Shown here in pieces: positions 6,592 to 31,950 of a DNA stretch of 32,000 nt; positions within the stretch are counted from its first letter, which is position 1; the number at the start of each line of letters is the position of its first letter. Source of the stretch: Xylanibacter ruminicola 23 (GTDB taxonomy: Bacteria > Bacteroidota > Bacteroidia > Bacteroidales > Bacteroidaceae); assembly GCF_000025925.1 (NCBI RefSeq), contig NC_014033.1:2190001-2222000 (forward strand), given 5' to 3'. The notes below the pieces were generated by a model, which was not told the origin of the DNA, ran no database searches, and saw nothing but the letters and a program-made list of their open reading frames with translations. The position numbers were made by a program, and so were the translations under genes.

Positions 6592-6621
6592 CAGCGAGAT
6601 TTTAAGACAATTTAAGCTATT

Positions 6622-9228: not shown

Positions 9229-9548
9229 CCGATAATCAATATAATAGAGGTATATATAAACATATCAGCGGCACGCAACCAGAAGCCATCGGTAAGCCAC
9301 GTGCCATTAGTAAGGATGGGCTTGGTAGAACCTAAGGCAAAGGTAACCACCATGATGAGCACAAAGCCCACAGCCACCAGCCATCCAATGCGCCCTGCAG
9401 GCACACCGTTAACCACATCGCTGCCCTTACGACGGTTGCGCAAACCATGCCATACCGAATAGGCAGTTACACCTATGGCAGCAGCTAATATTATATACAT
9501 CAGCCACAGCATCACATCGGCAATAGCAGGCGAAATAAAACTATTCAT
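9189..9548 (-). CDS. Small integral membrane protein in the ExbBD operon
   Basis: About 119 aa with three predicted TM helices. The ATG at 9548 is preferred over the GTG at 9551. It lies between exbB and exbD. Confidence 0.6.
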   Translation of the reverse strand: MNSFISPAIADVMLWLMYIILAAAIGVTAYSVWHGLRNRRKGSDVVNGVPAGRIGWLVAVGFVLIMVVTFALGSTKPILTNGTWLTDGFWLRAADMFIYTSIILIIGCFVSAIVSKFRS

Positions 9549-9568
9549 CACTATTCACTCTTCACTAT

Positions 9569-16205: not shown

Positions 16206-16628
16206 TCAATCTCTAATTTCACCGAGCGGGATCATCACAAAATCGCGCTCAAGCATCAGAGGGTGGGGAATCTGCAAGTCGGGTTCATCCACCCTCAGAT
16301 CGTCATATAGCAGAATGTCTATATCCATCAGGCGGTCGGCATAATGACCTCCTACCGACTTGTGTGTACGCCCTAACTCGCGTTCAATCTTCTGGGTGGC
16401 AAGCAGCACCTGGCGGGGCGTTAGTGTGGTTTCGCATAGCACGCAGGCATTTACGAACTGGTTATCCGACTCGAACCCCCAGGGCTCGGTCGAAATAAGA
16501 GAGGACTGGCGCACAACCAGTCCTACTCTTTCGCTGATAAGCGATATAGCGTTGCGGATATTCGCTTCCTTATCGCCAAGATTACTTCCCAGCCCAAGGA
16601 ATACCCGATGTAACTTTTCACTATTCAC
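16206..16628 (-). CDS. folK: 2-amino-4-hydroxy-6-hydroxymethyldihydropteridine diphosphokinase
   Basis: 140 aa with GLGSNLGD, RTLDLDILLY-like (RLMDIDILLY) and IPHP motifs. It uses a GTG start at 16628. Confidence 0.85.
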   Translation of the reverse strand: MNSEKLHRVFLGLGSNLGDKEANIRNAISLISERVGLVVRQSSLISTEPWGFESDNQFVNACVLCETTLTPRQVLLATQKIERELGRTHKSVGGHYADRLMDIDILLYDDLRVDEPDLQIPHPLMLERDFVMIPLGEIRD

Positions 16629-16645
16629 TTTTCACTATTCACTCA

Positions 16646-17710
16646 TTAATCGTCCAACATCAACAGGGCATCGCCGTAGCAACCAAACTTATAACCCTCC
16701 TTCAGCGCACGCTGATAGCCCTCGTACAGCAGGTCGTAGCCTGCAAACGAAGCCTCGGTCATCATCATGGGTGATTCAGGGTGATAGAAATTACCAATCA
16801 GTGCATTACACAGTCCGAACTCGTATGGAGGGAAGATAAACTTGTTGGTCCATCCCTCAAACTCCTTCAGCATACCATCGGTACCTACGGCACTCTCGGT
16901 AGCACGGGCGGTGCTCACACCTACGCAGCACACACGGTGTCCTTCCTCCTTGGCCTTGTTTACAATCTCACAAGCCTCGGCAGGAATAAACATCTGCTCG
17001 CTCGACATCTTGTGCTTGGTCAGGTCCTCAACCTCGATAGCATCGAAGTTACCCAGACCGCAGTGCAGGGTGATAAAGGCAAAGTTGATACCCTTAATCT
17101 CCATACGCTTCATCAGCTCACGACTAAAGTGCAAGCCAGTGGCAGGTGCAGTAACAGCACCCTCGTTCTTAGCGTAGATGGTCTGGAAATTAGTCATATC
17201 CTCCTCGGTAGCAGGACGACGGTCGATAATGTAGCGTGGCAGTGGAGCCTCGCCCAAACCGAACAGCATCTGCTTGAATTCATCGTGTGGACAGTCGTAG
17301 AGGAAACGCAGCGTACGGCCACGGCTGGTGGTGTTATCAATCACCTCAGCCACCATAGGACCATCTTCCTCGAAAAAGAGTTTGTTGCCGATACGAATCT
17401 TACGGGCTGGCTCTACAAGCACATCCCACAAGCGCTGGTCGGCATTAAGCTCGCGCAGCAAGAACACCTCAATCTTGGCATCGGTCTTCTCCTTGGTACC
17501 GTACAAACGGGCAGGGAACACCTTAGTGTCGTTGAAGATGAATGCATCGTCCTCGTCAAAGTAGTCGAGGATGTTACGGAAGTCGAGACCACTCTCGATT
17601 CGCTTACTCTTACGATGCAACACCATCAGCTTGCACTCGTCGCGATGGAAAGGTGGCTCAAGTGCAATCTGCTCTTCAGGTAACTTAAACTTAAACTGTG
17701 ATAACTTCAT
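16646..17710 (-). CDS. queA: S-adenosylmethionine:tRNA ribosyltransferase-isomerase
   Basis: 354 aa starting MKLSQFKFKLPEEQIALEP, with LHCGLGNF and the C-terminal YKFGCYGDALL. Confidence 0.9.
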   Translation of the reverse strand: MKLSQFKFKLPEEQIALEPPFHRDECKLMVLHRKSKRIESGLDFRNILDYFDEDDAFIFNDTKVFPARLYGTKEKTDAKIEVFLLRELNADQRLWDVLVEPARKIRIGNKLFFEEDGPMVAEVIDNTTSRGRTLRFLYDCPHDEFKQMLFGLGEAPLPRYIIDRRPATEEDMTNFQTIYAKNEGAVTAPATGLHFSRELMKRMEIKGINFAFITLHCGLGNFDAIEVEDLTKHKMSSEQMFIPAEACEIVNKAKEEGHRVCCVGVSTARATESAVGTDGMLKEFEGWTNKFIFPPYEFGLCNALIGNFYHPESPMMMTEASFAGYDLLYEGYQRALKEGYKFGCYGDALLMLDD

Positions 17711-17727
17711 ATTTTAATGTTTAATCT

Positions 17728-18432
17728 TTAATCATTAATGTTTAATTTCTCTTCAAGCCAGGCTGGGAACTCATCGAATGTGAGACAATCCTCCAGTCTG
17801 ACGTCGCCCACGCGAGTGCGGCACAGGGCAGTAAGATGTGCGCCGCTGCCAAGGGCCTCGCCAATGTCGCGAGCCAGCGAGCGGATGTAGGTACCCTTAC
17901 CGCATCCCACACGTATCTGCAGCTGCATCTTTTCGGGATCGAAATCAATGATTTCTATCTCATCGATATGCACTGGCTTCTCGGCCAACTGGTGGTCGCT
18001 ACCCTTGCGTGCCAGTTCGTAGGCACGGTCGCCACCTACCTTACAGGCCGAAAACAGCGGTGGTCGCTGCATAATATCGCCCACAAACCTGGGCAGTGTC
18101 TGCTCAATCAGCTCACGGGTGATATGCGCTGTGGGGTAAGTTGCGTCCACCTCATGCTCCAAGTCGTAACTGGGAGTGGTGGCACCCAACTGCAGGGTAG
18201 CCGTATACTCCTTTGAGTGCAGCTGCAAAGCCTCAATCTGCTTGGTGGCCTTACCGGTGCACAGCACCAGCACACCTGTTGCCAAGGGGTCTAAGGTGCC
18301 GGCATGCCCCATTTTCACACGTTTCACATGCAGTCGTTTGCTCAGCACATAACGGATATGCGCCAGCGCCCCGAAACTGCTCATACGATAGGGCTTGTTG
18401 ATATAGATATATGCGCCTTCCTGAAAGTTCAT
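17728..18432 (-). CDS. truB: tRNA pseudouridine(55) synthase
   Basis: The start is taken at the ATG at 18432 ([14 protein letters not shown]), which overlaps the uppP stop as ATGA. The catalytic motif [12 protein letters not shown] is present. The track start at 18477 lies inside uppP. Confidence 0.85.
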
Positions 18433-20410: not shown

Positions 20411-20443
20411 TAATTTACGTACGTAAAAATTCGAATTCGGCTG

Positions 20444-20451
20444 CAAAGATA
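20444..20451 (-). promoter_or_regulatory. -7 promoter box for ftsX (TATCTTTG on minus strand)
   Basis: Exact TAnnTTTG about 34 nt upstream of the ATG at 20410. Confidence 0.55.
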
Positions 20452-20483
20452 CTATTTTTTTTCTTTATCACAAAAAAAAAGTG

Positions 20484-20499: not shown

Positions 20500-21276
20500 A
20501 TGAGTACAATTATCTATCCATCGCCCATTTTTGGGCCTGTTCACAGTCGCCGACTGGGCATTTCGCTCGGTATCAACCTGTTGCCAGCCGACGGTAAGGT
20601 GTGCAGTTTCGACTGCATTTATTGCGAGTGTGGTTTCAACGAGGACCATCGCCCCACCCTGCCCATGCCAACACGCCAGGAGGTGATTGAGAAGCTCGAG
20701 GCCAAGTTGCAGCAGATGGTGACCGATGGTCAGTTGCCAGATGTACTGACCTTTGCCGGTAATGGCGAGCCCACCTGTCATCCGCATTTTGCCGAGATTA
20801 TCGATGATGTCATCCGCCTGCGCAATCAGTATTGCCCCCAGGCCAAGGTATCGGTACTCAGCAACTCAACCATGATTCACCGTCAGCAGGTACACGACGC
20901 CCTGATGAAGGTGGATAACAACATCTTAAAACTCGATACCGTTGATCCTTTATATATTAATAAGGTAGATCATCCCAACGGCACCTACGATGTAGCCCAG
21001 ATTATCGATCGCCTAAAGGCCTTTAACGGTCATGTGATTATCCAGACCATGTTTATGCGCGGCCAGTGCCAAGGCGAGAGCGTAGATAATACCGGCGAGG
21101 AATACGTTGCCCCCTGGTTAGAAGCCGTTAAAGCCATCAAGCCCCAGCAGGTAATGATTTACACCATCGACCGCGAAACGCCCGCCCAAGGCTTAGAGAA
21201 AGCCACCCACGAGCAACTCGACACCATCCGCGACCGCGTGATCGCCACCGGCATCCCCTGCACCGCGTCGTATTGA
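20500..21276 (+). CDS. Radical SAM protein
   Basis: 258 aa from MSTIIYPSPIFGPVHSRRLG, with the CxxxCxxC cluster CSFDCIYCEC. The upstream part of the track ORF crosses the promoter region. Confidence 0.8.
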   Translation: MSTIIYPSPIFGPVHSRRLGISLGINLLPADGKVCSFDCIYCECGFNEDHRPTLPMPTRQEVIEKLEAKLQQMVTDGQLPDVLTFAGNGEPTCHPHFAEIIDDVIRLRNQYCPQAKVSVLSNSTMIHRQQVHDALMKVDNNILKLDTVDPLYINKVDHPNGTYDVAQIIDRLKAFNGHVIIQTMFMRGQCQGESVDNTGEEYVAPWLEAVKAIKPQQVMIYTIDRETPAQGLEKATHEQLDTIRDRVIATGIPCTASY

Positions 21277-21390
21277 ATCCACTTAGCCTTGATGGTCAGC
21301 CAGACTCTGACGCGTCTGATAGGAATCCCACAAATGGTCGACAATATCAATATCAAGAATACTATCATCTTGTTTTTAGGTTTAGTATAA

Positions 21391-21419
21391 GTCTGCCAAG
21401 TGACTGTCCCCTGGCAGGC
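21391..21419. repeat. 29-nt imperfect palindrome, copy A (inverted relative to B and C)
   Basis: GTCTGCCAAGTGACTGTCCCCTGGCAGGC. Its reverse complement matches copies B and C except for 3 central nt. Confidence 0.9.
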
Positions 21420-21512
21420 TCAATCTGTGCCAACTACGCCCGCAAAACTCTTTGCCAGTACCCAAAGTGGCGCAAACATCAAGAGGGGCAATATCAATTT
21501 TACCTTGTTCAT
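21420..21512 (-). pseudogene. 30-codon remnant resembling an Rhs signal peptide
   Basis: MNKVKLILPLLMFAPLWVLAKSFAGVVGTD* compares with the Rhs N-terminus MNKIKQLLGLLLFAPVCVLAQS. The stop codon directly abuts palindrome copy A. Confidence 0.4.
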
Positions 21513-21565
21513 TATATATTATGTCACTCAGGTAAAGAGAGATTGAGAGATTCTTTCCATGATTC

Positions 21566-22138
21566 CTAATAATTAAAACAATTGTTCCTACCTGTTACAA
21601 ATTTTAATCTATTAGTATCAACATAGAAACCGTATTTTTTATTTCCATATGGCATTTCGTTGGATTGTTTATAAATTGTTATCGAGTTATTGTTCTTATC
21701 CCAAAATCCAATACCTATATATACCGAATCTTCGGAAAGGGGGCGATCCAAGACTACAAATTCTCCATATTTCCCTATAATATTAGTATTGTCGTTTCTA
21801 TAACAACAAATACGATCAATGTGTATAACACTTTCAAAATTTCCTGATGATATTGTGATACAATTATCCCAGCCAAAGTCAACAGTTACTTTTCCACCTT
21901 TATATGGTATGTCTTTAAACGACATTCCTTTGGTAAGAAACAAGGCTTTTCTATATGTTTTAATACGTTCTTCATATGACAAAATAGTTTCATTAATGGT
22001 AGCATTTCCATAATCTGACTCTATCTGATCAAGTTGGCAGAATGGATAATATACAAATCGAAACCATAAGATACCAAACGCAAACAAAAACAATAACAAT
22101 GCAATTCTAAAACCACCAATATGTATTCTCATATTCAA
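21566..22138 (-). CDS. Candidate immunity protein for the Rhs toxin tip 1 (TM-anchored, no recognisable family)
   Basis: 190 aa with an N-terminal TM (FRIALLLFLFAFGILWF). It is AT-rich, and its start overlaps the Rhs 3' end by 32 nt. Confidence 0.55.
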   Translation of the reverse strand: MNMRIHIGGFRIALLLFLFAFGILWFRFVYYPFCQLDQIESDYGNATINETILSYEERIKTYRKALFLTKGMSFKDIPYKGGKVTVDFGWDNCITISSGNFESVIHIDRICCYRNDNTNIIGKYGEFVVLDRPLSEDSVYIGIGFWDKNNNSITIYKQSNEMPYGNKKYGFYVDTNRLKFVTGRNNCFNY

Positions 22139-25100
22139 AATTTTTTATTCCAGGTTTATCATTTCCATTATAATTTCCATTAATTGTTGGCTCTTTACCA
22201 TTTTTAATAGTATGCCATTCTCCTTCTTTGTATCCTTGGGGTGTATTATCCCCAATGCTAATACTAGTATCTGAAGCCACTCCGATACGTCTGTTTGGAG
22301 CGATAAATATTATGTCTTTAAATGCTTTATCTCTAGATATTTCTCGCACAACAGCACTTGAACCACATGAATAAAACACTATATGTAGGTCTTCTTTACT
22401 TATCTCACCTTTCTGGAATTTATTCCAAGTTTTGGAATTTGCAGAAAGAAAATCATTTAACTGCTTTCCATTTGAGATATAATTATGGTTCCATTCCTTG
22501 TTTTCTGTATTATAAGTTTGTATATCAATACTAGATGCAAAACGACTTTTTTCATTTTCGTATACTCCATGAGCAACAATCATAATTGAATTCTTGTCAT
22601 TATGTGCAACTAAATTTTTAGCAAGTTCTTTGAGAACCGCATTGTCTGCACAATAAGCTCCTAATCCATCGCGTACTTCTTTTCCATTTGGATCAATCAA
22701 CTTTATAGGATTATTTGCACAGTACGCATACGGACTGACATTATAATACTTTTCTGCCAATGGATCAATTCTATCCCATCTAGCGAGGATGGGGTCATGT
22801 TGTCTTGCACCATAGTCATAAGTATTCAATCCATGCATTTTGTCCAATTCCTTGCCGTTATATTTGTAGGGTTGGAAATCTGCGGCTGTAGATTCGGCAC
22901 ATGTGGCACCAAAGGGGTAGTAGTTCGTAACCTGTTGCACGGTGCCACTTGCATTTACCACTTCACGGATGTTACCCAGATGGTCTGGGGTATAATAATA
23001 GAACGTAAAGTTATCGCTCGTAGAACTTGTGGCTGATGCCTGAGCGTATCCACCATCGAACAAGTACTTATCAACCTTGCCATTCTTCATAACCAGACTT
23101 CCGCCAAGCAGATAGTCTGTTGAATCTGCCTGCAGGATTTGCGATGATGTCAGTTCTGCTGGCTTCACACCCCACGTGCGGCTGATATTTGGCTTGGCGG
23201 TATAGTGAACAGCGCGTAACTTCTGCCCCGAAGCAGTATATACATATTTGGTTACACTGCCATTCATAAAATATATCTGCTTTGGATTGTTGTTCAGGTC
23301 ATAAGTGATATAGGCTATACCGCGGCTCTTATCAGCTTGCAGCGAGCCATTGGCATTGAACTTATACCCAGAGCCGTTGGCCTTCTTGTATTCCATACCC
23401 CCGCTGGCGTTATTATCAGAGGCTGACTCAGAAACACTTGATGGCTGGTTACCAGTATAACTGATAGTGAGGTTGTCCATCAATGTACCATTACCATAGC
23501 GGGTAAGGCCGGTAATGTTGCCATTAGCATCATACGACATGGATTCACTGTACCTATTCGTATTACTACCAAGTGCATCACCCTCGCCATAGGCCCCCGA
23601 GGTCAACCTGTTGGCAGTATCATAGCTGAACTTATAACCACGCTTGGAACTTTGAGTGTTATCTTTCCAGCGGATGCTGCTGATATTGCCATTATAAAGT
23701 GTTGTGCCAGGACCGTCGGCATAGAACAGTTCTTCAGTAAAAGAACCTGTGGATATGTTCGTCAACCAGCCGCGCAAATCATAGGTATAACTGATGGCAT
23801 TTGATGAGTTTGAGCGTCCAACCGTTGACAGCCTGCCCAGGCTGTTGTGGGCATAGCTTACTGAACCATTGGCCGCTGTACCATGGTTTACTGTGAGTGT
23901 ATGGCTGCTCTGCTGGTTGTTATAGGCATTATAACCGAAACTCTCGCTCACGGTCATGTTGCTGCCATACTTTACATCGATAGTAGATGTGGATTGTGAT
24001 AGCTTGTTGGTATATGTGTAGCTGCTGGTGTTTGAGATAATCCTGCCACCGATTTCCTTGCTCTTGGAGCTGGTGATATTACCCTTGAGGTCGTACTGCA
24101 TGGCCTGCGCCAGCTCATCGCCATTGGTGGCTTTAGTAACAACACCTGTGAGCTGTGCTTTCTGCGAGACAGAAGATGAAAGCGTAAGGACTGAGAAACG
24201 GGAATTACTACTTTGGTTGCCATCGTAATAGTTGGCTATCTCAAGTTCGGCATTCGTTAACGCAGGGGTATTGCTATAGCCAGTACCAAGCACACCAGTT
24301 GAGCCAGAGCTGAATGTTGCATTCCAGACAGTAGAACTATTCAGGCAATTGGTGCACAGTCCCTGCACCACCAGACGATCGAACTTGTCGTAGATAAGAA
24401 AGCGGTATTTGTCTGCACTGCGCATCTCGGCATCACGCATACAAATCATCCTGTCGGCACCGTCGTACCAGTATTCTATATAGCCAGCCCCAGGAAGTTG
24501 CTTGTAGGTGATACGCCCCCTGTCGTCATAGCGGTATTCATAACCTGTAGCCGCAAGGTTCTTGTCCGACTGGTATTTGGGTGGCAGGACAAAACGCAGA
24601 TGGTCAAGGTTGTCATAGACATAATAGGTACAAAGACTGCCACCCACACGCTGCATGACAGTATTGCCAAACAGATTTGTGAATGTCTCCACTTCCTTGC
24701 CATCAGGGTCTTTCGTTGTTTCTTTTGTCAGGCTGTTAGCGGGATAATATCCGTCCTGCACCAGGCTATTGCCACTCACACCATAGCGGATCACCTCATT
24801 GGCTGCATTGGCTGCGTAGGCTATCGTGGCAGGACTGCTGGCATAGGCAGAACCAGGAGTGGTAACAGCAACAGGCCTGTCCAAAGCATCATACTGCGTC
24901 CGGCCATAAGGGGTATTCTCACCATAGCTGATACCTGTTGGGGTAGCATAACCTATGGACGAACCGATAGAAACAGGCGCATACTTACGTTCCTCACGTC
25001 CTAATGCATCGTATGTTATCGCTGAGTAGGACGTTTGTCCGCCGTCGCCAGTTGTACTCACTGACACAGTAGGATAGCCAAGACCGTTATAGTACTGCAC

Positions 25101-25229
25101 AGACTTCACGGTGCTACCACTCGAATTGAGCACCGTCTCTGTCTTGACATAGTTCTGGTCAGTGCTTTGCGCCAATACACAAACCGGCGCAAACAACAAG
25201 AGACCTAATAGCTGTTTTATCTTATTCAT
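22107..25229 (-). CDS. Rhs/YD-repeat polymorphic toxin, full length
   Basis: 1040 aa with signal peptide MNKIKQLLGLLLFAPVCVLAQ. It has many YD units (ITYDALGRE, YRYDDRGRI, FSYDTANRL, MSYDANGNI). The Rhs core ends at YDYGARQHDPILARWDRIDP...NNPIKLIDPNG (DPNG at 22683-22694). A 191-aa AT-rich tip follows. Confidence 0.9.
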   Translation of the reverse strand: MNKIKQLLGLLLFAPVCVLAQSTDQNYVKTETVLNSSGSTVKSVQYYNGLGYPTVSVSTTGDGGQTSYSAITYDALGREERKYAPVSIGSSIGYATPTGISYGENTPYGRTQYDALDRPVAVTTPGSAYASSPATIAYAANAANEVIRYGVSGNSLVQDGYYPANSLTKETTKDPDGKEVETFTNLFGNTVMQRVGGSLCTYYVYDNLDHLRFVLPPKYQSDKNLAATGYEYRYDDRGRITYKQLPGAGYIEYWYDGADRMICMRDAEMRSADKYRFLIYDKFDRLVVQGLCTNCLNSSTVWNATFSSGSTGVLGTGYSNTPALTNAELEIANYYDGNQSSNSRFSVLTLSSSVSQKAQLTGVVTKATNGDELAQAMQYDLKGNITSSKSKEIGGRIISNTSSYTYTNKLSQSTSTIDVKYGSNMTVSESFGYNAYNNQQSSHTLTVNHGTAANGSVSYAHNSLGRLSTVGRSNSSNAISYTYDLRGWLTNISTGSFTEELFYADGPGTTLYNGNISSIRWKDNTQSSKRGYKFSYDTANRLTSGAYGEGDALGSNTNRYSESMSYDANGNITGLTRYGNGTLMDNLTISYTGNQPSSVSESASDNNASGGMEYKKANGSGYKFNANGSLQADKSRGIAYITYDLNNNPKQIYFMNGSVTKYVYTASGQKLRAVHYTAKPNISRTWGVKPAELTSSQILQADSTDYLLGGSLVMKNGKVDKYLFDGGYAQASATSSTSDNFTFYYYTPDHLGNIREVVNASGTVQQVTNYYPFGATCAESTAADFQPYKYNGKELDKMHGLNTYDYGARQHDPILARWDRIDPLAEKYYNVSPYAYCANNPIKLIDPNGKEVRDGLGAYCADNAVLKELAKNLVAHNDKNSIMIVAHGVYENEKSRFASSIDIQTYNTENKEWNHNYISNGKQLNDFLSANSKTWNKFQKGEISKEDLHIVFYSCGSSAVVREISRDKAFKDIIFIAPNRRIGVASDTSISIGDNTPQGYKEGEWHTIKNGKEPTINGNYNGNDKPGIKNFEYENTYWWF
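22761..23318. repeat. Direct repeat R1 (Rhs core end), paired with 26412-26970
   Basis: Hand alignment gives a constant offset of about 3651-3652 nt. Most positions are identical, roughly nine in ten by eye (not computed). Confidence 0.85.
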
Positions 25230-25266
25230 CTATTACAAATAGCAATAACAAATCGTCCCCTTATAT

Positions 25267-25707
25267 TCATTGCTCAATAACATCTTCATCTATTCTTTCT
25301 CTATTATAGAAAGATACAAAATTTCCACGGCCATATATTATTATCAAAGGTTTATTTTGAGCCTTCCAGTCAATAACTGAATCTATCAAATTATAGTTAA
25401 TTTTAGGAGAAGATTTCACCTCTTTAATAATACTTGAATTTTTGGTGTATATATCTACAGATTTAAAATCCACATAATGTAATGGTATATCGGGAAAGTT
25501 TTTGTCGAAACTCATAAACTTTATATAATTGTCACCAAACTCCTTGCTATGGCTCAAATATACATAGCTTATATCTGTATAATAATTTGCTGTTACTTTT
25601 ACATACATTTTAATAGCAGGGATATAATAGATTCTGCTATGGGACGTCACATAATATTTTAAAACTAACATTATGATTGCTAAAATTATAATCACCCACT
25701 TTTTCAT
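25267..25707 (-). CDS. Candidate immunity protein for orphan toxin tip 2 (TM-anchored)
   Basis: 146 aa with an N-terminal TM (WVIIILAIIMLVLKYYV). It is AT-rich and lies 12 nt downstream of the orphan Rhs stop. Confidence 0.5.
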   Translation of the reverse strand: MKKWVIIILAIIMLVLKYYVTSHSRIYYIPAIKMYVKVTANYYTDISYVYLSHSKEFGDNYIKFMSFDKNFPDIPLHYVDFKSVDIYTKNSSIIKEVKSSPKINYNLIDSVIDWKAQNKPLIIIYGRGNFVSFYNRERIDEDVIEQ

Positions 25708-25719
25708 AACTCGTCTTTT

Positions 25720-27042
25720 TTAAGGGATTAAAAATGGATTACTACTATTAAACTTCTCTTTCACAAAAGGCATAGATTTTTTACCATATTTCCAACCATA
25801 ATATTCTGCATTTTGAGTAGATATTCCTTCTACGCCCCCTTGATATATATCAAAGCCTACTCTTGCGAGTTCCCATGTCAATCCATTTACAGCTGCTACA
25901 TATCCTGCAGCAATATTTCCAATATCACGCGCAGAAGAATATATCCTCATTCCACCCTGAGTTTTTCCAATAGGCATTCCTCTATATGGATTCACATCTT
26001 TCTTGCCTAACGTGCCATTTGTGACTTTAAAATCATATTCATGGTTTGTTCTTGCCTTATCCATATATGAAATAAGATCAGGATCTTTGAATATTTTTCC
26101 CAAAAAGATTTCCCCACTCATATCCGAAGGGTTAATTATACTATTTTCCCATTTCTTCTTATCACTATTATAAAAAGATGTCATTGTTGCAGAAACTCCG
26201 ATGGATTCTCCTCTTACCGTATAGTTTCCGTCGTCGTCTTGAGTATAAACATAGATATTACGATCCTTATCATTAATATCTCCCCCAATCACTTGATATG
26301 TACCATCTTCTAATATTTTTACTTGGGTACTTCTTCCATCTGGGTCAATTAAAACAACAGGATTATTTACACAATACACATAGGGACTAGTGCCATAGTA
26401 CTTCTCGCAAAGCGGATCGATCCTATCCCATCTTGCAAGGATGGGGTCATGTTGGCGGGCACCGTAATCGTAGGTGTTCAGACCGTGCATCTTGTCGAGC
26501 TCCTTGCCGTTGTATTTGTAGGGTTGGAAATCTGCGGCTGTAGATTCGGCATATGTAGCACCGAAGGGGTAGTAGTTCGTTATCTGCTGCACAGAGCCAC
26601 TTGCATTTACCACTTCACGGATGTTACCTAGATGGTCAGGTGTGTAATAATAGAACGTAAAATTGTCGCTCGTTGTGCTGGCAGCTGATGCCTGAGCGTA
26701 TCCACCATCGAACAAGTACTTATCAACCTTGCCATTCTTCATAACCAGACTTCCGCCAAGCAGATAGTCTGTTGAATCAGCCTGCAGGATTTGCGATGAT
26801 GTCAGCTCAGCAGGCTTCACACCCCAAGTGCAGCTGATATTTGGCTTGGCGGTGTAGTGAACAGTGCGTAGCTTCTGCCCCGAAGCACTATATACATACT
26901 TGGTTACACTGCCATTCATAAAATATATCTGCTGGGGGTTATTGTTCAGGTCGTAGGCATAACTGATGGCATTTGCCTGCCAGGGGACAGTCCCGTGGCA
27001 GACTCCATCAAAGATATATTTTACAAGATGGTACTGTTTCAT
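25720..27042 (-). CDS. 5'-truncated (orphan) Rhs C-terminal fragment with alternative toxin tip
   Basis: 440 aa. Residues ~25-236 are near-identical to the Rhs core end, up to LIDPDG (26335-26346). A distinct 204-aa tip follows. The first ~22 codons are non-Rhs and are partly encoded by palindrome copy B. Confidence 0.8.
   Translation of the reverse strand: MKQYHLVKYIFDGVCHGTVPWQANAISYAYDLNNNPQQIYFMNGSVTKYVYSASGQKLRTVHYTAKPNISCTWGVKPAELTSSQILQADSTDYLLGGSLVMKNGKVDKYLFDGGYAQASAASTTSDNFTFYYYTPDHLGNIREVVNASGSVQQITNYYPFGATYAESTAADFQPYKYNGKELDKMHGLNTYDYGARQHDPILARWDRIDPLCEKYYGTSPYVYCVNNPVVLIDPDGRSTQVKILEDGTYQVIGGDINDKDRNIYVYTQDDDGNYTVRGESIGVSATMTSFYNSDKKKWENSIINPSDMSGEIFLGKIFKDPDLISYMDKARTNHEYDFKVTNGTLGKKDVNPYRGMPIGKTQGGMRIYSSARDIGNIAAGYVAAVNGLTWELARVGFDIYQGGVEGISTQNAEYYGWKYGKKSMPFVKEKFNSSNPFLIP
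26412..26970. repeat. Direct repeat R2 (Rhs core end), paired with 22761-23318
   Basis: See R1. Homology stops abruptly at about 26970, 4 nt from palindrome copy B. Confidence 0.85.
26975..27003. repeat. 29-nt imperfect palindrome, copy B
   Basis: GCCTGCCAGGGGACAGTCCCGTGGCAGAC, identical to copy C. One flanking nt on each side also matches. Confidence 0.9.
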
Positions 27043-27087
27043 AATTTGGTATTTTAAGTTATTGTGGCGTTATAAAAACATCCGATG

Positions 27088-27095
27088 CAAAAATA
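27088..27095 (-). promoter_or_regulatory. Possible -7 promoter box for the Rhs operon (TATTTTTG on minus strand)
   Basis: TAnnTTTG match about 46 nt upstream of the ATG at 27042, in the AT-rich spacer between palindrome copies B and C. Confidence 0.35.
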
Positions 27096-27167
27096 TAAAA
27101 AGCAAATTTAAATACGACGTATTTAACAAAGAATAACGAAACTTTAATTTTTTATAGCACACATCAT

Positions 27168-27196
27168 GCCTGCCAGGGGACAGTCCCGTGGCAGAC
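27168..27196. repeat. 29-nt imperfect palindrome, copy C
   Basis: GCCTGCCAGGGGACAGTCCCGTGGCAGAC. Arms CTGCCA/TGGCAG and GGGAC/GTCCC can pair. Confidence 0.9.
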
Positions 27197-27234
27197 TTAA
27201 AGCTGTTAGTCGGGGGAATAGTTGATATCTTGGC

Positions 27235-27387
27235 CTACTTCGCAAGAAGTTCTTCGATTTTCTTTATGAAGTCTTTTGATGTCTGGATTTGATCTGCCAG
27301 GTCTTTTTCAGAAATGTCGTAAGCACAGTTGTAATCTGCTTTTTGACGTAACTGCATCATTCTTGCAAGGAAACCTTCAGCTTCCAT
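27235..27387 (-). CDS. Mini-HEPN-like ORF (50 aa), possibly a truncated toxin partner of the MNT gene
   Basis: MEAEGFLARMMQLRQKADYNCAYDISEKDLADQIQTSKDFIKKIEELLAK. It resembles only the C-terminal half of HEPN domains (the R..aDY region). Its ATG lies 2 nt after the MNT stop. It is too short to appear in the ORF track. Confidence 0.45.
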   Translation of the reverse strand: MEAEGFLARMMQLRQKADYNCAYDISEKDLADQIQTSKDFIKKIEELLAK

Positions 27388-27389
27388 AA

Positions 27390-27707
27390 TTATACCAGAA
27401 CTATGCCATCACGAGTCACATTCTCGTAGAATGGGGTAATACGATATGATTCCCACTCTTTAGTAGTGTACATGATGGGGTTGATTTCTTGACCTAAGTC
27501 GCAGCCTAATAGGACAAACGGATAACTGACATTGTCGTAATCAGATTGGTCAAGGGTGTCCTTATCTAATAGAATAAGGATATCCCAATCTGAATCTTTA
27601 TGAGCATCACCTCTGGCTCTTGAACCATAAAGGATGGCCTTACCACCTTTGGGAATAGTAGAGGCGGCTGTCTGCTTTATCCGTGTTAATGCTGCTCTTG
27701 TAGTCAT
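27390..27707 (-). CDS. Nucleotidyltransferase-domain protein (MNT-type antitoxin-like)
   Basis: 105 aa with the pol-beta NTase motif LYGSRARGDAHKDSDWDILILLD. Confidence 0.8.
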   Translation of the reverse strand: MTTRAALTRIKQTAASTIPKGGKAILYGSRARGDAHKDSDWDILILLDKDTLDQSDYDNVSYPFVLLGCDLGQEINPIMYTTKEWESYRITPFYENVTRDGIVLV

Positions 27708-27726
27708 AACTTCTTAACTTTCGCTG

Positions 27727-27734
27727 CAAAGATA
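27727..27734 (-). promoter_or_regulatory. -7 promoter box for the MNT gene (TATCTTTG on minus strand)
   Basis: Exact TAnnTTTG 20 nt upstream of the ATG at 27707. Confidence 0.55.
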
Positions 27735-27777
27735 CGATATGTTAGCGAAAAATGCAAATAAAATCGAAAAAAAATAT

Positions 27778-27785
27778 TATCTTTG
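27778..27785 (+). promoter_or_regulatory. -7 promoter box (TATCTTTG) with no protein gene downstream
   Basis: Exact TAnnTTTG, back-to-back with the MNT promoter. The next plus-strand landmark is the terminator at 27895. Confidence 0.5.
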
Positions 27786-27791
27786 CGGCGT

Positions 27792-27932
27792 ATGACGCGT
27801 GGTTTAAGTCCCGGTCTCCTATGTCGTATGGGGCTTATCACTCGTATGAACCTGACACGATTAGCACGAGGGATAGTGTGGTGAAGGAGATGATCATCCG
27901 AGAGCCTTTGTGCTCTCGGATGAATGTTTTTT
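27792..27932 (+). ncRNA. Candidate small RNA (~140 nt) bounded by a promoter box and an intrinsic terminator
   Basis: The promoter box lies at 27778. The terminator is CATCCGAGAGC-CTTTGT-GCTCTCGGATG + AATGTTTTTT at 27895-27932. It carries three TCGTATG/GCGTATG motifs. No family was recognised. Confidence 0.4.
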
Positions 27933-28233
27933 AGCGGGGGAGGAGATGCTCGCGCAGCTCACTGATGAGCTCTTTAAACAGCTGCTCCTGTCGCTCGGGA
28001 TTGTCGTCGTAGTGCGACAGGATGTCGCGCCAGATTTCGATCTGCTTACTGGTTTTTAACTCGAAGTCCGAAGGAAGTTTACCTTTTTAGGCTCCATTAA
28101 TACAGCCATGGCCCAGATTGTACTGGGCCTCTTTGGCACGGTGCATGCGGTAGAAAGTCGTGTGGACCTTCTCCAGCACCTTGACTGTCAGAGCGTGCGC
28201 TGCTGACAGTGGATCTAAATTGTACTTCTTCAT
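27931..28233 (-). pseudogene. 100-codon reading frame interrupted by one in-frame TAA (codon 49)
   Basis: It reads MKKYNLDPLSAAHALTVKVLEKVHTTFYRMHRAKEAQYNLGHGCINGA*KGKLPSDFELKTSKQIEIWRDILSHYDDNPERQEQLFKELISELREHLLPR*. The stop lies at 28087-28089. The second half has no start codon of its own. Confidence 0.45.
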
Positions 28234-28270
28234 CACGTTTTTTACGTAATTGTGTTAATAATTATATATT

Positions 28271-28290
28271 GTGTCCTGACTATAGGACAC
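28271..28290. promoter_or_regulatory. Palindromic operator candidate in a divergent promoter region
   Basis: GTGTCCT-GACTAT-AGGACAC, between the ATG at 28233 (minus) and the ATG at 28400 (plus). Confidence 0.4.
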
Positions 28291-28317
28291 TATTTTGTTA
28301 GCCTGCCGGAATCTTTT

Positions 28318-28325
28318 TACCTTTG
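28318..28325 (+). promoter_or_regulatory. -7 promoter box (TACCTTTG)
   Basis: TAnnTTTG match about 75 nt upstream of the ATG at 28400. Confidence 0.45.
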
Positions 28326-28399
28326 TTTTGTCAACCGGTGACACTTTATATCAATAACGTTCAATCATCTAAAATATTGTGTTTAAATCACAAAAAACT

Positions 28400-29530
28400 A
28401 TGAACCAGGAAAATTTAAACCTAATCAAAAGCAGTTTGCCCCTTATGGGGCAAGCTGCAACCCCTTCAGCGAAGAAAATAATTTCGATGCAGGATTTGGA
28501 TGAGTTGCAATCGGGTCGTATCACCCCTGAGATGGAACTGCCACCTATGCAGCCGCTGTTTTCGATCCATGGAGTGCCTTGCTTTTATCGTGGCGAGCTG
28601 ACTGCTGATTGTGGTAAGGCAAAGAGTGGCAAGACTACCTTCCTGTCGATACTGATGGCGGCTACCATCAAGCGACAGACACTGGCGCTGGAACGACTGA
28701 CCGACGAGCCGCTAAAGGTGCTCTGGATTGACACAGAGCAGAGTCAGCAGAGTACGCAGGAGATACTGAAAGAGCGAATCATGCCCCTGGCAGGCGTGGA
28801 CAAGCTTGACGATACGCAGTTTTTTGCCTTCAACCTGCGAGGTGTTGGTTTTGAGAAGCGTGGAAGAATGGTGGATGTGGCTATCCGATCGATAAAACCT
28901 GACATTTGTATTATCGATGGTGTGAAGGATCTGATGACTGATATCAACGATGCTGTACAGGCTACGCTGATTATGGAGAAGCTGATGGAGCTGGCTAAGG
29001 AAATGAACTGTTGCATCGTGTGCGTGTTGCACCAGAATAAGAGTGAACAGGATCGCAACATGCGTGGCTCTATCGGTACCGAACTTACCAACAAGGCTTT
29101 CGAGGTGTTTCAGTGCTCGATACTGGGTGATGATGAGACTTTTAAGGTGGAACAGACTTATAGTCGCAAACGAAAAATTAAGCAGAATTTTTATTACACC
29201 ATTAATAAGGATGGCTTGCCTGAGGCTTGTGCCAACTATCACGAACAGCCACGCGATGCGCAGGGACGATTTATGAGCATGAAGCAGGATATGAGTGCTG
29301 ATGAGGTTGATAAACTGTTAAAAGTTTTCGTAGATGCTTTTGAGGGTCGTTCGCAACGCCGTTTTAATGAGCTGATGGCTGTGGCATTGAAGAAATGCGG
29401 CGTGGCTGATGCTGCGACCTACTATGCCTACTTGGCCAAGGCTGAGGATGCGGGGGTTGTGCGCAAGATGGAGCATCCCGAAACGGGCGAGACTTGGGTG
29501 GAATTGCTTGACAACACGTTGCCCTTTTAA
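28400..29530 (+). CDS. RecA-fold AAA ATPase (RepA/DnaB-C-terminal-like, mobile-element replication helicase candidate)
   Basis: Walker A is CGKAKSGKTTFL and Walker B-like is ICIIDGVKDL, followed by VLHQNK. The ATG at 28400 is preferred over the GTG at 28379. Confidence 0.7.
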   Translation: MNQENLNLIKSSLPLMGQAATPSAKKIISMQDLDELQSGRITPEMELPPMQPLFSIHGVPCFYRGELTADCGKAKSGKTTFLSILMAATIKRQTLALERLTDEPLKVLWIDTEQSQQSTQEILKERIMPLAGVDKLDDTQFFAFNLRGVGFEKRGRMVDVAIRSIKPDICIIDGVKDLMTDINDAVQATLIMEKLMELAKEMNCCIVCVLHQNKSEQDRNMRGSIGTELTNKAFEVFQCSILGDDETFKVEQTYSRKRKIKQNFYYTINKDGLPEACANYHEQPRDAQGRFMSMKQDMSADEVDKLLKVFVDAFEGRSQRRFNELMAVALKKCGVADAATYYAYLAKAEDAGVVRKMEHPETGETWVELLDNTLPF

Positions 29531-29546
29531 TTTAATTAATTAATTT

Positions 29547-29564
29547 AGCCCCTATAAAGGGGCT
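29547..29564 (+). terminator. GC hairpin embedded in a TTAA/TAAT-rich tract
   Basis: AGCCCCT-ATAA-AGGGGCT, flanked on both sides by about 20-35 nt composed only of A and T. Confidence 0.45.
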
Positions 29565-29613
29565 TAATTTAAATTTAATTTAATTATTAATTAATTATAA
29601 CCCGCACGAGCCG

Positions 29614-30321
29614 ATGAAGTGGAATGAGGTTTTCTGCAACACGTTTAAGGCTATTGGAGAAAGGTTGGCGCCTGAGATAGAACGGAGGGTGAACTTTATG
29701 TTGCCTTCGCTGCCGATGGTTGAGGCTTGCAGGGCCAGCGAGTTCGATTTTCTGCAGGTGCTGATAGGGCAGGGGGTGATAACCACAGAGCAGGCGCTGC
29801 ATGCAGCTGAGTGCTATCGGTTGGGTAAAACCAAGACCGGGCGAACCATCTTCTGGATGATCGACGACATGATGACGCCGCTGGATGCTCATATCGGTGA
29901 TGGCTGGCTGTCGCAGATGCTGAAAGCCCGCGAAGAGCTGCTGGCTTACTGGACTGTGAAGCACTGCCTGTTTGGACTGCATCTGGTGGATGGCTCCAAG
30001 CCGATAGGCATCGTAGAGTCGGAGGCTTCGGCAGTGATTCTGAGCGAGCTGTATCCTGAATGTGTTTGGCTGGCTTATGCCGTTAACTCGCATTTGGTGA
30101 TGGACATGCTGGCGCCGCTGCAGGGTAGCACGGTAACCATCTATCCGCGAACCGACCCCACGATGAGCAACTACGTGTTTTTTCTCGACTATGCCAAGCA
30201 AGCAGAACAGTATTACGACATCCGGTTGCGGATTGACAATACCTTGGAACTGCATGCCACCGAGGAACAAAAGCAACGGTGTATCGACATCGTGGATTTT
30301 GTACTTGATTCTGCGAGATAA
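29614..30321 (+). CDS. Toprim-like protein of Bacteroidales mobile elements (DUF6371-like, from memory)
   Basis: 235 aa with the blocks YRLGKTKTGRTIFWMID, HCLFGLHL, IGIVESEASAVIL, VTIYPRTD and LELHATEEQKQRCIDIVDF. The opposite-strand ORF at 29587-30276 is rejected as a shadow ORF. Confidence 0.6.
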   Translation: MKWNEVFCNTFKAIGERLAPEIERRVNFMLPSLPMVEACRASEFDFLQVLIGQGVITTEQALHAAECYRLGKTKTGRTIFWMIDDMMTPLDAHIGDGWLSQMLKAREELLAYWTVKHCLFGLHLVDGSKPIGIVESEASAVILSELYPECVWLAYAVNSHLVMDMLAPLQGSTVTIYPRTDPTMSNYVFFLDYAKQAEQYYDIRLRIDNTLELHATEEQKQRCIDIVDFVLDSAR

Positions 30322-30407
30322 TCAACTTGTTTTATCATCAAAATCAACTTACTTTTTATCTATAATCAAATTACTTTTCATCCACAATCAATATGGTAAA
30401 TTACTAC
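30320..30407 (+). repeat. Four phased 22-bp direct repeats (iteron/operator-like)
   Basis: AATCAA starts at 30320, 30342, 30364 and 30386. The units are AATCAACTTGTTTTATCATCAA, AATCAACTTACTTTTTATCTAT, AATCAAATTACTTTTCATCCAC and AATCAATATGGTAAATTACTAC. Confidence 0.8.
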
Positions 30408-30722
30408 AATAAGCATCTGTTTATCAGTAAGGCTAAACTGGCCGAACTGGCTGGTGTGTCGTATCGCACTTTTAACCGCTATCTGAAGACCCGCCAACAC
30501 ATCCTGGATGCCCTGGGGGTGAATCGCTATGCCAGGCTACTGCCGCCACAAGCCGTGAAGTATGTTTGTGAGGATTACTGCATCGATCTGCCACCAGAGC
30601 TGCAGGATCAGCGTGTGCTGCAGAGTCATCAGCTGTATCAGAAGGTGGTGCGTGAGTTGCAACTGACTACCTTTTTTGAAGGTAAATGGACCAAAATCAC
30701 TGAAATACCACCCGATTTCTAA
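30393..30722 (+). CDS. Small HTH-type DNA-binding protein (DUF4248-like, from memory)
   Basis: 109 aa starting SKAKLAELAGVSYRTFNRYLK, with LLPPQAVKYVCEDY. Its position before the HU gene is typical of this module. Confidence 0.5.
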   Translation: MVNYYNKHLFISKAKLAELAGVSYRTFNRYLKTRQHILDALGVNRYARLLPPQAVKYVCEDYCIDLPPELQDQRVLQSHQLYQKVVRELQLTTFFEGKWTKITEIPPDF

Positions 30723-30773
30723 TTATTTTCACGCTAACTTGCCGTAACTGGACAATGGCCTCTTGCAATACTG

Positions 30774-30781
30774 TACCTTTG
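30774..30781 (+). promoter_or_regulatory. -7 promoter box (TACCTTTG)
   Basis: TAnnTTTG match about 60 nt upstream of the ATG at 30842. Confidence 0.5.
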
Positions 30782-30841
30782 CATTGTCATTCCGGATGGC
30801 ACTAATGTTTATTCTTTAATGTTTAATGTTTAATCTAAATT

Positions 30842-31381
30842 ATGGTACGTTACATTTTAAAGCAAATCAAAATCACTGGCAACAAGTGTTTCGGTAGGTG
30901 GTTCGCCAAGAACGTGGTGGAGGAGACTATCGACCTGGATGCTCTGGCTGAGCACATGAGTACTCACAACTCGCCTTACTCTAAGGGTGTTATCAAGGGC
31001 CTGCTCACCGACATGATCGGTTGTATCAAGGAACTCCTGCTGGAGGGTAAGAACGTGAAGATCGACGACCTGGCCATTTTCTCTCTTGGTATCAAGAACA
31101 AGGAGATGGCGGAGAAGGAAGAGGACTTCACTGTATCTAAGAACATCAGCGGTGTGAAGCTGAAGGCCCGTGCCACTGGCGACCTGATGAGTAAGAGTCT
31201 TAACCTGGAGGCTACCCTGAAGAAGGCTACCTTTGTGAATGGTAAGCTAGCTACTGAGCCAAGTAATGGCGATGGTGGTAATACCAGCGGCGGTGGCTCA
31301 ACCAGCGGTAATGGTTCAGATACGCCAAGCGGCGGTGGTAACACCGGTGGAGGCGGTAACCATGAGCCTATCGGAGATTAA
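30842..31381 (+). CDS. HU-family (Bacteroidales HU_HIG-like) DNA-binding protein with Gly/Ser/Thr-rich tail
   Basis: 179 aa. The N-terminal domain starts FGRWFAKNVVEETIDLDALAEHMSTHNSPYSKGVIKGLLTDM. The C-terminus is low-complexity (GDGGNTSGGGSTSGNGSDTPSGGGNTGGGGN). Confidence 0.7.
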   Translation: MVRYILKQIKITGNKCFGRWFAKNVVEETIDLDALAEHMSTHNSPYSKGVIKGLLTDMIGCIKELLLEGKNVKIDDLAIFSLGIKNKEMAEKEEDFTVSKNISGVKLKARATGDLMSKSLNLEATLKKATFVNGKLATEPSNGDGGNTSGGGSTSGNGSDTPSGGGNTGGGGNHEPIGD

Positions 31382-31407
31382 ACTTAACCCTTAAAATTGT
31401 ATTCTAT

Positions 31408-31512
31408 ATGGTGAAAGTAAATTGGACCAATGTTGCTAAAGTCCTTAAATTCATCGCAACAGTTATTACTGCAGTCCTGGGAACTATAGCTGTACAGTCA
31501 TGCGCACAGTAA
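31408..31512 (+). CDS. 34-aa small membrane/lipoprotein-like peptide (smalltalk-like)
   Basis: MVKVNWTNVAKVLKFIATVITAVLGTIAVQSCAQ. It has a single hydrophobic helix ending in SC, lies between HU and the amidase, and overlaps the amidase start by 13 nt. It is below the ORF-track size cutoff. Confidence 0.55.
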   Translation: MVKVNWTNVAKVLKFIATVITAVLGTIAVQSCAQ

Positions 31513-31937
31513 ACCTAATTATCATCCATTGCAGTGCCACTCGCAGCAACCGACGCTTCACCGTCAAGGACCTCGAGAGCTGTCACAACGCCCGATTCCA
31601 CAACAAGGGCATAGGCTATCACTACTACATTGAACGCGACGGACAACTCTATGCCACCCGCGACGAAGACGAGATTGGCATGCACGCCCGACACTACAAT
31701 GCCCACAGCATAGGCATCTGTTACGAAGGCGGATTAAACGAGAAAGGCCAGGAGGCCGACACCCGTACCCCAGCCCAGAAACAAACGCTCATAGCATTGC
31801 TACGTAGTCTGAAAGTTGACTACCCCGATGCCGAGATCATAGGTCACCACGACCTTCCCTGGGTAACAAAGGCCTGTCCCTGTTTCGACGCCCGCACCGA
31901 GTACCAGCACCTACAGCCATTAGCCTTAGAGCAGTAG
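31500..31937 (+). CDS. N-acetylmuramoyl-L-alanine amidase (amidase_2 / PGRP fold)
   Basis: 145 aa with IIIHCSAT, GYHYYIERDG, SIGICYEGG, GHHDL and KACPCFD. Confidence 0.85.
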   Translation: MRTVNLIIIHCSATRSNRRFTVKDLESCHNARFHNKGIGYHYYIERDGQLYATRDEDEIGMHARHYNAHSIGICYEGGLNEKGQEADTRTPAQKQTLIALLRSLKVDYPDAEIIGHHDLPWVTKACPCFDARTEYQHLQPLALEQ

Positions 31938-31950
31938 TAACCATAAAAAA

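Follow-up and report, generated by a model that had tools for sequence, protein, structure and literature searches.

We analyzed a 32,000-nucleotide (nt) stretch of Xylanibacter ruminicola 23 DNA (contig NC_014033.1, positions 2,190,001 to 2,222,000; hereafter the window), which carries an Rhs polymorphic toxin locus, and in particular a GC-rich, 29-nt imperfect palindrome, here called E, that recurs at the joints of this locus. Comparison of the available sequences favors, with a probability of roughly 0.55, the reading that E serves in cis as a recombination or junction site for the Rhs toxin and orphan-immunity arrays that rumen and gut Prevotellaceae carry. E marks the joints between toxin and immunity modules, and most likely the arrays are built by recombination at this site. 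E was read as a recombination site because it is specific to such arrays, because insertions and deletions (indels) are bounded by it, because homology breaks at its edges, and because truncated genes abut it.

Three copies were found in the window, in which the genes of the locus are read from the minus strand. The 29-mer GCCTGCCAGGGGACAGTC[CCG/ACT]TGGCAGAC occurs twice on the plus strand (copies B and C) and once, with 2 substitutions, on the minus strand (copy A). In the gene-sense notation used for all features below, they are as follows:

27168-27196, minus strand, copy C of E, gene-sense reading GTCTGCCACGGGACTGTCCCCTGGCAGGC
26975-27003, minus strand, copy B of E, providing codons (V)CHGTVPWQ(A) of a leader-orphan fusion open reading frame (ORF)
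21391-21419, plus strand, copy A of E, inverted relative to B and C, sense-strand reading GCCTGCCAGGGGACAGTCACTTGGCAGAC

Most of what the initial annotation had said of these copies held. Its count of three was upheld, with 0.00 matches expected in shuffled sequence and no fourth copy in the window even when as many as 8 mismatches to the consensus were allowed. B and C, described as identical, showed no differences over 31 nt. A does lie inverted and directly at the stop codon of a 30-codon Rhs signal-peptide remnant, and B does supply the codons CHGTVPWQA, which here fall within a 440-amino-acid (aa) fusion ORF. The proposed pairing of the arms into a hairpin agreed with single-stranded DNA folding energies of -10.8 kcal/mol for B and C and -7.0 kcal/mol for A. 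The difference of A from B and C, given as 3 central nt, had to be corrected to 2 substitutions within a 3-nt block.

Over the known copies, the consensus of E is GCCTGCCA-S-GGGAC-W-GTCCC-S-TGGCAGGC (IUPAC code), laid out as two 11-nt arms, unlike at positions 2 and 9, around a near-symmetric 7-nt GAC(A/T)GTC. The stem is formed by CTGCCA/TGGCAG, a G.G mismatch, and GGGA/TCCC, in that order, and the mid-stem G.G (or C.C) mismatch is retained in nearly all copies. The base 5' of E is A in 9 of 10 contexts, and the base 3' of it is A or T. Both orientations occur because the two common forms are mutual reverse complements; along the arrays, the series is CTC-CTC-GAx in the window, CTC-CTC in contig L047, CTC-GAG-CTC in L050, and GAG-GAG in L016. 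E had no match in Rfam, a terminator scan made no call at E, the flanks of which are without T runs or a T-tract, and a literature search with the E sequence returned unrelated eukaryotic or viral matches only. A sigma-54 promoter in C was considered and dropped, as the spacing suits C and neither B nor the remaining copies.

To describe the distribution of E, one genome per species from 185,579 species was scanned with an exact pattern of 20 fixed bases, and JGI metagenomes were scanned with an exact pattern of 22 or more fixed bases. The genome scan yielded 15 stretches, only 2 of which are related, namely, those from X. ruminicola Ga6B6 (L015) and an uncultured Prevotellaceae metagenome-assembled genome (L009). 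Three contigs were retrieved from the metagenomes (L016 to L018), and a search with the leader peptide added four more (L047 to L050). All copies found are located within Rhs toxin or orphan-immunity arrays and come from Prevotellaceae. In the representative genome of Ga6B6, the exact pattern was matched at one locus only. Matches in Atribacterota, Streptomyces, Paenibacillus, Saccharibacteria, and viral contigs were rejected as other hairpins or repeats that differ in their outer arms and flanks; some of the matches outside Prevotellaceae are classic terminators with T runs. A dispersed repetitive extragenic palindrome (REP) was ruled out by the very low copy number in both scans. In a contig from IMG/VR that carries a terminase gene (L041), a lone perfect palindrome, ATCTGCCAGGGGACAGTCCCCTGGCAGGG, is located between two genes at 7895-7923. 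Its inner 25 nt equal, on the complementary strand, those of the E copy at L018 1412-1440. This could be chance or a hint of a host-level hairpin function.

Natural variants that differ by single modules were found at one locus that is represented in five samples (L018, L047, L048, L049, and L050); samples that hold this polymorphic locus include SRR27107213, ERZ27256966, ERZ28653806, and GCA_024712465.1. The five contigs share a VapE-like gene, a gene for a 113-aa protein (98% identity), and about 380 nt of intergenic DNA, including a promoter and 5' untranslated region (UTR) homologue termed segment S, followed by E. Past this E, L047, L048, and L049 continue with a module of a toxin stub and an Imm26 gene, another E, and a 190-aa gene. 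L050 corresponds to L047 with an additional 691 nt, consisting of a 203-aa gene and E, before the same Imm26 module. L018 corresponds to L047 with an additional 654 nt at the same insertion place, consisting of a lipoprotein gene, a partial copy, and E. When L047 was aligned with L050 and with L018, the sole overlap at the indel was E, about 32 nt. The stub-Imm26 module starts with ACAAGGAGG directly after E in three upstream contexts and ends with CGAAATCAT directly before E. On these alignments, E-bounded differences are the signature expected of whole-module gain or loss by exchange between E copies.

The sequences that adjoin E are diverse. About 10 left and about 10 right flanks were seen at a 90 to 100% conserved E, with no flank sequence in common, and the typical module, bounded by E, consists of a 5'-truncated toxin stub and an immunity gene. 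A partial E stands beside a whole one in L016 (GCCTGCCAG-A-E) and L018 (AGATCTGCCGGGGGACAGGTCC-A-E), and a further copy (L018 2034-2062) is cut within its right arm. The hybrid copy at L018 1412-1440 fits a central crossover and also mutation. A decayed E-like copy, GCCTGTCACGGGACATCCTCTGTCATGCC, is present at L016 400-430, 3 nt from the start of homology to the 3' terminus of the lipoprotein module in L009; on its 3' side follow a long terminator-like hairpin and then an S-like promoter.

Joints at E that cut through genes were observed in the window itself. Apart from the three copies of E, its array and the adjoining backbone comprise the following features:

27390-27707, minus strand, intact MNT gene, backbone adjoining the array
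27235-27387, minus strand, HEPN remnant with an internal deletion between ATGGAAG repeats
27004-27167, minus strand, segment S, AT-rich promoter and 5' UTR homologue of 164 nt, with the leader ATG at 27042-27040
27005-27021, minus strand, 17-nt scrap of Rhs core, AAATATATCTTTGATGG, encoding KYIFDG and abutting copy B
25720-27042, minus strand, 440-aa fusion ORF made up of leader, E, 5'-truncated Rhs core (Rhs1), and toxin CT1
25267-25707, minus strand, putative immunity gene 1 (imm1), 146 aa, 27% GC
22107-25229, minus strand, full-length secreted Rhs2 with signal peptide, DUF6443, RHS repeats, and toxin CT2
21566-22138, minus strand, putative immunity gene 2 (imm2), 188 to 190 aa
21420-21512, minus strand, first 30 codons of a third Rhs gene (Rhs3), signal peptide, with a stop codon that touches A
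21277-21390, minus strand, last piece of the array, 22 nt followed by the 5' fragment of a small ORF (ATG at 21368)

With a full-length Rhs2 and a 5'-truncated CT1-immunity pair sharing its core, the locus belongs to the Rhs polymorphic toxin loci with orphan modules. The orphan core of Rhs1 (26955-26327) is 87% identical to the core of Rhs2 (23303-22673) over 633 nt. Homology of Rhs1 reaches the edge of B (26975-26954 versus 23803-23782, 95%); it ends 0 to 1 nt from B rather than 4 nt away, as was first reported. In another strain (L074), the same CT1-imm1 pair is located on an untruncated core, followed by the next Rhs start. The B-to-A segment of the window is therefore regarded as a piece cut from a tandem Rhs array, and, by this comparison, its 5.5 kb begin within Rhs1 and end at codon 30 of Rhs3. 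The start of Rhs3 (nt 21454 to 21512) shares 76% identity with that of Rhs2. Similarly, the lipoprotein gene of L018 joins E at codon 3, and the same ORF is intact in L009. In the window and in Ga6B6, C truncates segment S at the 5' end; in L018 and L047 to L050, S is continuous with native upstream DNA, and there is no E at that position. L009 also encodes a 358-aa "mini-Rhs" (1297-2373, minus strand), a signal peptide joined to a core end and toxin domain, from which the whole YD shell is deleted; this joint is without E.

Regarding the limits of the array, the initial annotation was revised. It had taken C as the outer boundary of the locus. C is located 38 nt past the intact stop codon of the HEPN remnant, and its opposite edge meets the 5'-truncated S; the related genome L030 lacks an entire 10.67-kb island (window ~21276-31942; L019 5766-16433) that extends well beyond C. 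Its other statement, that A and C flank the whole array as inverted repeats, held in part: the two copies extend into a 43-nt inverted repeat with 86% complementarity, but the array continues for 114 nt beyond A. The small-ORF fragment past A ends at the island boundary, which is the stop codon (21276) of a convergent radical-SAM gene. Truncation of HEPN by C was also rejected. HEPN has lost internal sequence and retains an intact 3' end; therefore, C is not a HEPN truncation point. Compared with L021 6750-7145, the in-frame remnant of 50 codons (27235-27387) keeps its native stop. Near-identical MNT-HEPN pairs in other contigs adjoin BREX or restriction genes.

The island contains genes for Amidase_2, HU-HIG, a 109-aa protein, DUF6371, AAA_25, and MNT/HEPN, in addition to the Rhs array. 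Neither an integrase nor att-like direct repeats were seen at its ends. The corresponding site in L030 (10778-11218) holds about 400 nt with repeated palindromes of the type TTCCCA-N-GTTGGGAA. Strain Ga6B6 has the same flanks as the window, in the order MNT, HEPN remnant, C, S, and B. From the junction of core and C-terminal (CT) toxin on, it carries another, lipase-like toxin tip with an ankyrin immunity gene and lacks a full-length Rhs. Homology between the two strains extends from 28397 to 26371 of the window and resumes at 21423, 4 nt from A. Ga6B6 has two extra copies, one decayed and E-like (L015 3520-3550) and one of the A type (L015 3597-3625). About ten contigs, which represent at least 8 samples, showed the window locus neither inverted nor in any alternative arrangement. 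Look-ups with imm1 and imm2 revealed no other arrangement of it either, save for the untruncated Rhs1 of L074.

Arrays headed by a native S (L050 587-2748, L047 1-1862, and L018 14-340) adjoin the divergent 113-aa gene and the VapE-like gene, the product of which has primase/helicase-type domains (BT4734-like_N, VapE, and DUF5906). The window array instead adjoins a different helicase/primase-type pair, AAA_25 and DUF6371. No relatives of the VapE-like protein were found in viral contigs, and there were no plasmid or phage matches.

Segment S is 80 to 86% identical to the native promoter and 5' UTR upstream of Rhs genes in L009 and L016, and its leader ATG is the ATG of an upstream ORF (uORF) in the native Rhs UTR. 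This uORF (L009 2373-2420, minus strand; window 27030-27042) has 5 codons, ATGAAACTGTACCCTAG, and is located about 25 nt before the Rhs start. The 17-mer before B is identical to part of the orphan Rhs core of Ga6B6, which encodes DKYIFDGG. Because S is native-like and a 17-nt scrap of core stands at B, the array head is regarded as an Rhs gene from which a giant internal stretch, up to E, has been deleted. The S-E leader (MKQYHLVKYIFDGV-CHGTVPWQA) is joined to four different downstream sequences, all of them in frame: the Rhs frame in the window, a native lipoprotein ORF in L018, and two toxin stubs (P0001 and P0002). The toxin-stub fusions stop 8 nt before the start of the next gene or overlap it. 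We infer that translation initiated in S continues across E, with coupling to the immunity genes further downstream. The decayed Rhs promoter-leader, transplanted and fused in frame, is predicted to drive the window array.

Hairpins of related design were found beyond E. Two orphan-immunity arrays that were retrieved through Imm26 homologues, L054 and L058, contain the intergenic core GGGGACAG(G/T) between other complementary stems: CAATCA...TGATTG in L054 and GAATC...GATTC, AAATCAA...TTGATT, and CTCACAG...CTGTGAG in L058. Ga6B6 has an array-specific hairpin, AGATCTGCC...GGCATCT, with the same conserved core GGGGACAG, and intermediate forms connect all of these hairpins to E. Stems of the subfamilies were judged by folding each sequence individually, as a MAFFT alignment offsets the 5' stem by 1 nt between subfamilies. 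GGGACAG occurs 9 times in the 4.6-kb array of L054 and 6 times in 2.6 kb of L058, compared to about 0.5 or fewer expected by chance in each. Imm26 arrays in L051, L059 to L064, and L067 have neither E nor GGGACAG hairpins; therefore, the element is not universal, and it is clade or system specific. The L054-type motif was absent from viral contigs. In L054, a 300-nt duplicate with 99% identity (9057-9356 and 11244-11543), spanning a hairpin motif together with a promoter and the beginning of a nitroreductase gene, flanks an Imm26 gene and a 192-aa gene, as though these had been inserted with target duplication.

We hypothesized that an enzyme encoded elsewhere would act on E in trans. Such an enzyme might be a tyrosine recombinase of the Xer or integron type, or else a nuclease or transposase specific for hairpins, and it could recognize E as a duplex, by the 11-nt arms around GAC(A/T)GTC, or as a folded hairpin with its conserved mismatch. 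Exchange between two E copies would insert or delete modules, whereas one-ended deletions from E into neighboring DNA would erode toxin genes; selection would retain the immunity genes and discard the toxin bodies. The window array, with C, S, B, the 5.5-kb segment, and A in succession, would have been assembled by such events. The underlying process may involve an enzyme dedicated to the site, illegitimate recombination that depends on the hairpin, or simply RecA exchange over 29 to 31 bp. A wider and more tentative version, which we rate as possible rather than probable, is that E and its GGGGACAG-core relatives, with their covarying stems, are the attC equivalents of a Bacteroidota-specific gene-capture system, the enzyme of which acts in trans and assembles orphan immunity arrays from Rhs pieces.

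Searches for such machinery were negative. Neither recombinase nor transposase domains were detected in the window or, for the arrays with long flanks (window, Ga6B6, and L054), in the surrounding 10 kb or so, and no RAYT gene was found in the window; on this point, the initial annotation had correctly stated that the window has no recombinase gene. Homologues obtained with a SUKH query are on short contigs only, which reached no recombinase or rAID-1 locus. Target-site duplications were not found at E junctions.

Several of our observations weigh against E being a recombination or junction site. Within ~10 kb of the long-flanked arrays, there are no recombinase, transposase, or RAYT genes, and neither circular nor inverted junctions were seen. 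RecA-type exchange between repeats of 29 to 31 bp could yield identical whole-module indels. The few variants cannot place the crossover at the center or the edge of E, and the sole hybrid copy may have arisen by mutation. In addition, the orientation of E along arrays is irregular. The public scans were exact-match scans of 18 to 22 positions, the whole evidence base amounts to about 10 loci from one narrow clade, and the link to L054 and L058 consists of an 8-nt core along with a common architecture and niche.

Part of this evidence would also suit an explanation at the level of the transcript, according to which E is mainly a transcript-level or structural hairpin that closes toxin-immunity operons on the 3' side, where it would function as an mRNA stabilizer, processing site, or atypical terminator and, being repeated, would passively provide a short patch of homology for RecA-dependent deletions and insertions. 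E is mostly located 7 to 150 nt past an immunity stop codon and folds into a stable hairpin, a similar intergenic palindrome exists in the phage-like contig L041, the lack of a nearby recombinase would be expected, and homology between E copies suffices for whole-module indels. However, the T-tract, the terminator call, and the Rfam match are all missing, and B is positioned 14 codons inside a translated leader. Module homology ends exactly at both edges of E, whereas a native 3' UTR would share its flanks or diverge along with the module. Gene-internal truncation points located directly at E, as well as a mid-stem mismatch that is kept and not repaired in nearly all copies, are likewise difficult to reconcile with an RNA hairpin, which we therefore consider unlikely.

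The fixed end and variable neighbor of E are typical of adjacent deletions at transposon ends, so E might alternatively be the terminal repeat or hairpin of a small nonautonomous element with its transposase encoded elsewhere. This could be a miniature inverted-repeat transposable element (MITE) or PATE-like element, such as the 222-nt unit C-S-B with its 29-nt inverted ends, or an end of the IS200/IS605 or rolling-circle type; the truncations would then be adjacent deletions or one-ended events. C and B, which are mutually near-perfect inverted repeats, do bound a 164-nt AT-rich segment, and E is nearly always preceded by A and followed by A or T. Yet no junction has a target-site duplication, and E was never found inserted into otherwise continuous sequence. 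S occurs without C in five contigs, where it is continuous with native upstream DNA; therefore, C-S-B is not a unit. Together with a very low copy number, a confinement to toxin and immunity arrays, and no transposase being seen, this makes a transposable element quite improbable. The inverted position of A relative to B and C, which together flank a 5.5- to 5.7-kb Rhs segment, also raised the idea of a phase-variable, shufflon-like segment that switches the expressed Rhs toxin, and invertible regions are in common use among Bacteroidales. Inversion between A and B, however, would put all genes antisense to the S promoter, without any in-frame fusion. One orientation was found in all contigs from at least 8 samples, no invertase gene is present, and most copies in other arrays follow one another in direct orientation. 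We regard this as very improbable. A recombination or junction site hence remained our preferred reading of E.

The closest described arrays are those of the recombinase-associated acquired interbacterial defense system rAID-1, which are Bacteroidales orphan-immunity arrays that begin, on the 5' side, with a co-oriented gene for a XerD-like tyrosine recombinase (Ross et al. 2019, bioRxiv 10.1101/471110; PMC12247911). Their repetitive intergenic motifs were called "reminiscent of integrons" by the authors (10.1101/471110). E arrays resemble them in phylum, in co-oriented low-GC orphan immunity genes, in toxin remnants, and in having conserved repetitive motifs between genes. rAID-1 arrays are defined by at least 2 co-oriented short genes of 41% GC or less for orphan immunity proteins; the window array has 40.7% GC, and its immunity genes have 27 to 32%. 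Imm26 and SUKH orphans are present in E-type and related arrays. Unlike in rAID-1, no available flank, many of them on short contigs, contains a XerD-like recombinase. The 5' neighbors are MNT/HEPN and AAA_25 in the window and the 113-aa and VapE-like genes in L047 and L050. In addition, an E array is headed by a decayed Rhs (promoter S, core scrap, and E), and a full-length Rhs is still in the array. The rAID-1 motif is published only as a figure.

Integron cassettes share with E modules a single imperfect-palindrome site at the 3' end of each module, as well as whole-cassette indels in which the site is the sole overlap, as observed for L050 and L018 versus L047, with one cassette in 3 contexts. 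As for attC, the family is recognized by structure and a short conserved core, while stems vary. A promoter and short leader before the first site would drive the modules of an E array; the integron counterparts are Pc/attI and ORF-11. Like clusters of attC sites lacking integron integrases (CALINs), arrays may be without an integrase. Unlike attC sites, which measure 57 to 141 nt, E measures 29 to 31 nt and lacks both R/L boxes and a GTTRRRY core. No intI is present among the window ORFs or within 10 kb on either side of arrays, and, unlike cassettes, E modules are often gene fragments with arbitrary gene-internal ends and nonuniform site orientation.

The dif modules of Acinetobacter plasmids are bounded by pdif (XerC/XerD) sites (PMC6449649, PMC13141974, and PMC7399989). 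These sites are imperfect palindromes of about 28 to 29 bp with 11-nt arms and a center of 6 to 7 nt, a layout similar to that of E; compared with the dif layout of 28 bp, two 11-nt arms of different sequence, and a 6-nt center, E can be parsed as 11-7-11 with its arms unlike at positions 2 and 9. They bound accessory modules, including toxin-antitoxin genes, that are found in varied contexts, and their recombinase is a housekeeping one encoded elsewhere, which would be a further likeness. We know of no dif site that E resembles in sequence. E copies do not follow the strict alternation in orientation of pdif, and E arrays, in contrast to dif modules, are chromosomal, belong to Bacteroidota, and have module ends that cut through genes.

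Jackson in 2009 and Koskiniemi in 2014 reportedly explained the displacement of Rhs C termini and the origin of orphan arrays by homology-facilitated illegitimate recombination. The E arrays agree with such a model in that a full-length Rhs is combined with orphan CT-immunity modules, the window and Ga6B6 diverge from the core/CT junction on, and old toxins are 5' truncated while their immunity genes are kept. Unlike that model, which is without a defined junction sequence, a conserved 29-nt palindrome was found here at every joint. For arrays of Vibrio, also without a defined junction sequence, Kirchberger et al. stated that an integrase-like process has no evidence in its favor (Kirchberger 2017, PMC5361080).

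Other classes of repeats fit less well. By exact-match scans, E is far from the tens to hundreds of dispersed copies per genome of REP, BIME, and REPIN elements. It does not form the multisite unit with terminal inverted repeats and target-site duplications of MITEs and insertion sequences, the combination of both orientations and an adjacent invertase of a shufflon, or the GC-rich hairpin with T/U tract of an intrinsic terminator. The suggestion in the initial annotation that E resembles a recombination-type site consequently stands as to a cassette-specific joint, with E-bounded indels and homology that breaks at its edges, but not as to the types it had named. The very low copy number speaks against a REP deletion hot spot, one orientation shared by about ten independent contigs speaks against a shufflon, and 29 nt with no GTTRRRY core or adjacent integrase do not make an attC site.

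Two other repeats were noticed. AT-rich heptamer tandem arrays (TTCACTA/TTCACTC, TAATGTT, and GAACATT) are intergenic at 9534-9595, 16604-16665, 17715-17746, and 30803-30848 of the window, and the related metagenome contig L054 has the same kind of array at 11978-12075. A conserved block of about 20 nt, AAAA(A)TATCGTATCTTTGCAG, which includes the Bacteroidota -7 promoter motif TAnnTTTG, is found upstream of several unrelated genes on both strands (3092-3113, 6573-6602, 20440-20463, 27716-27743, and 27766-27789 of the window).

Prior models for the origin of orphan toxin and immunity arrays combine homologous recombination in the conserved core with an undefined illegitimate joint, and behavior like that of integrons has so far been no more than a suggestion. 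A defined 29-nt site at every joint, along with natural variants that differ by a single module, provides a concrete and testable handle on this process. Judging by the in-frame fusions, a decayed Rhs promoter-leader appears to be reusable for the expression of captured immunity genes. The birth of a cassette has, to our knowledge, never been observed for integrons. If the gene-capture reading is true, E joined at arbitrary gene-internal points would preserve cassette birth itself.

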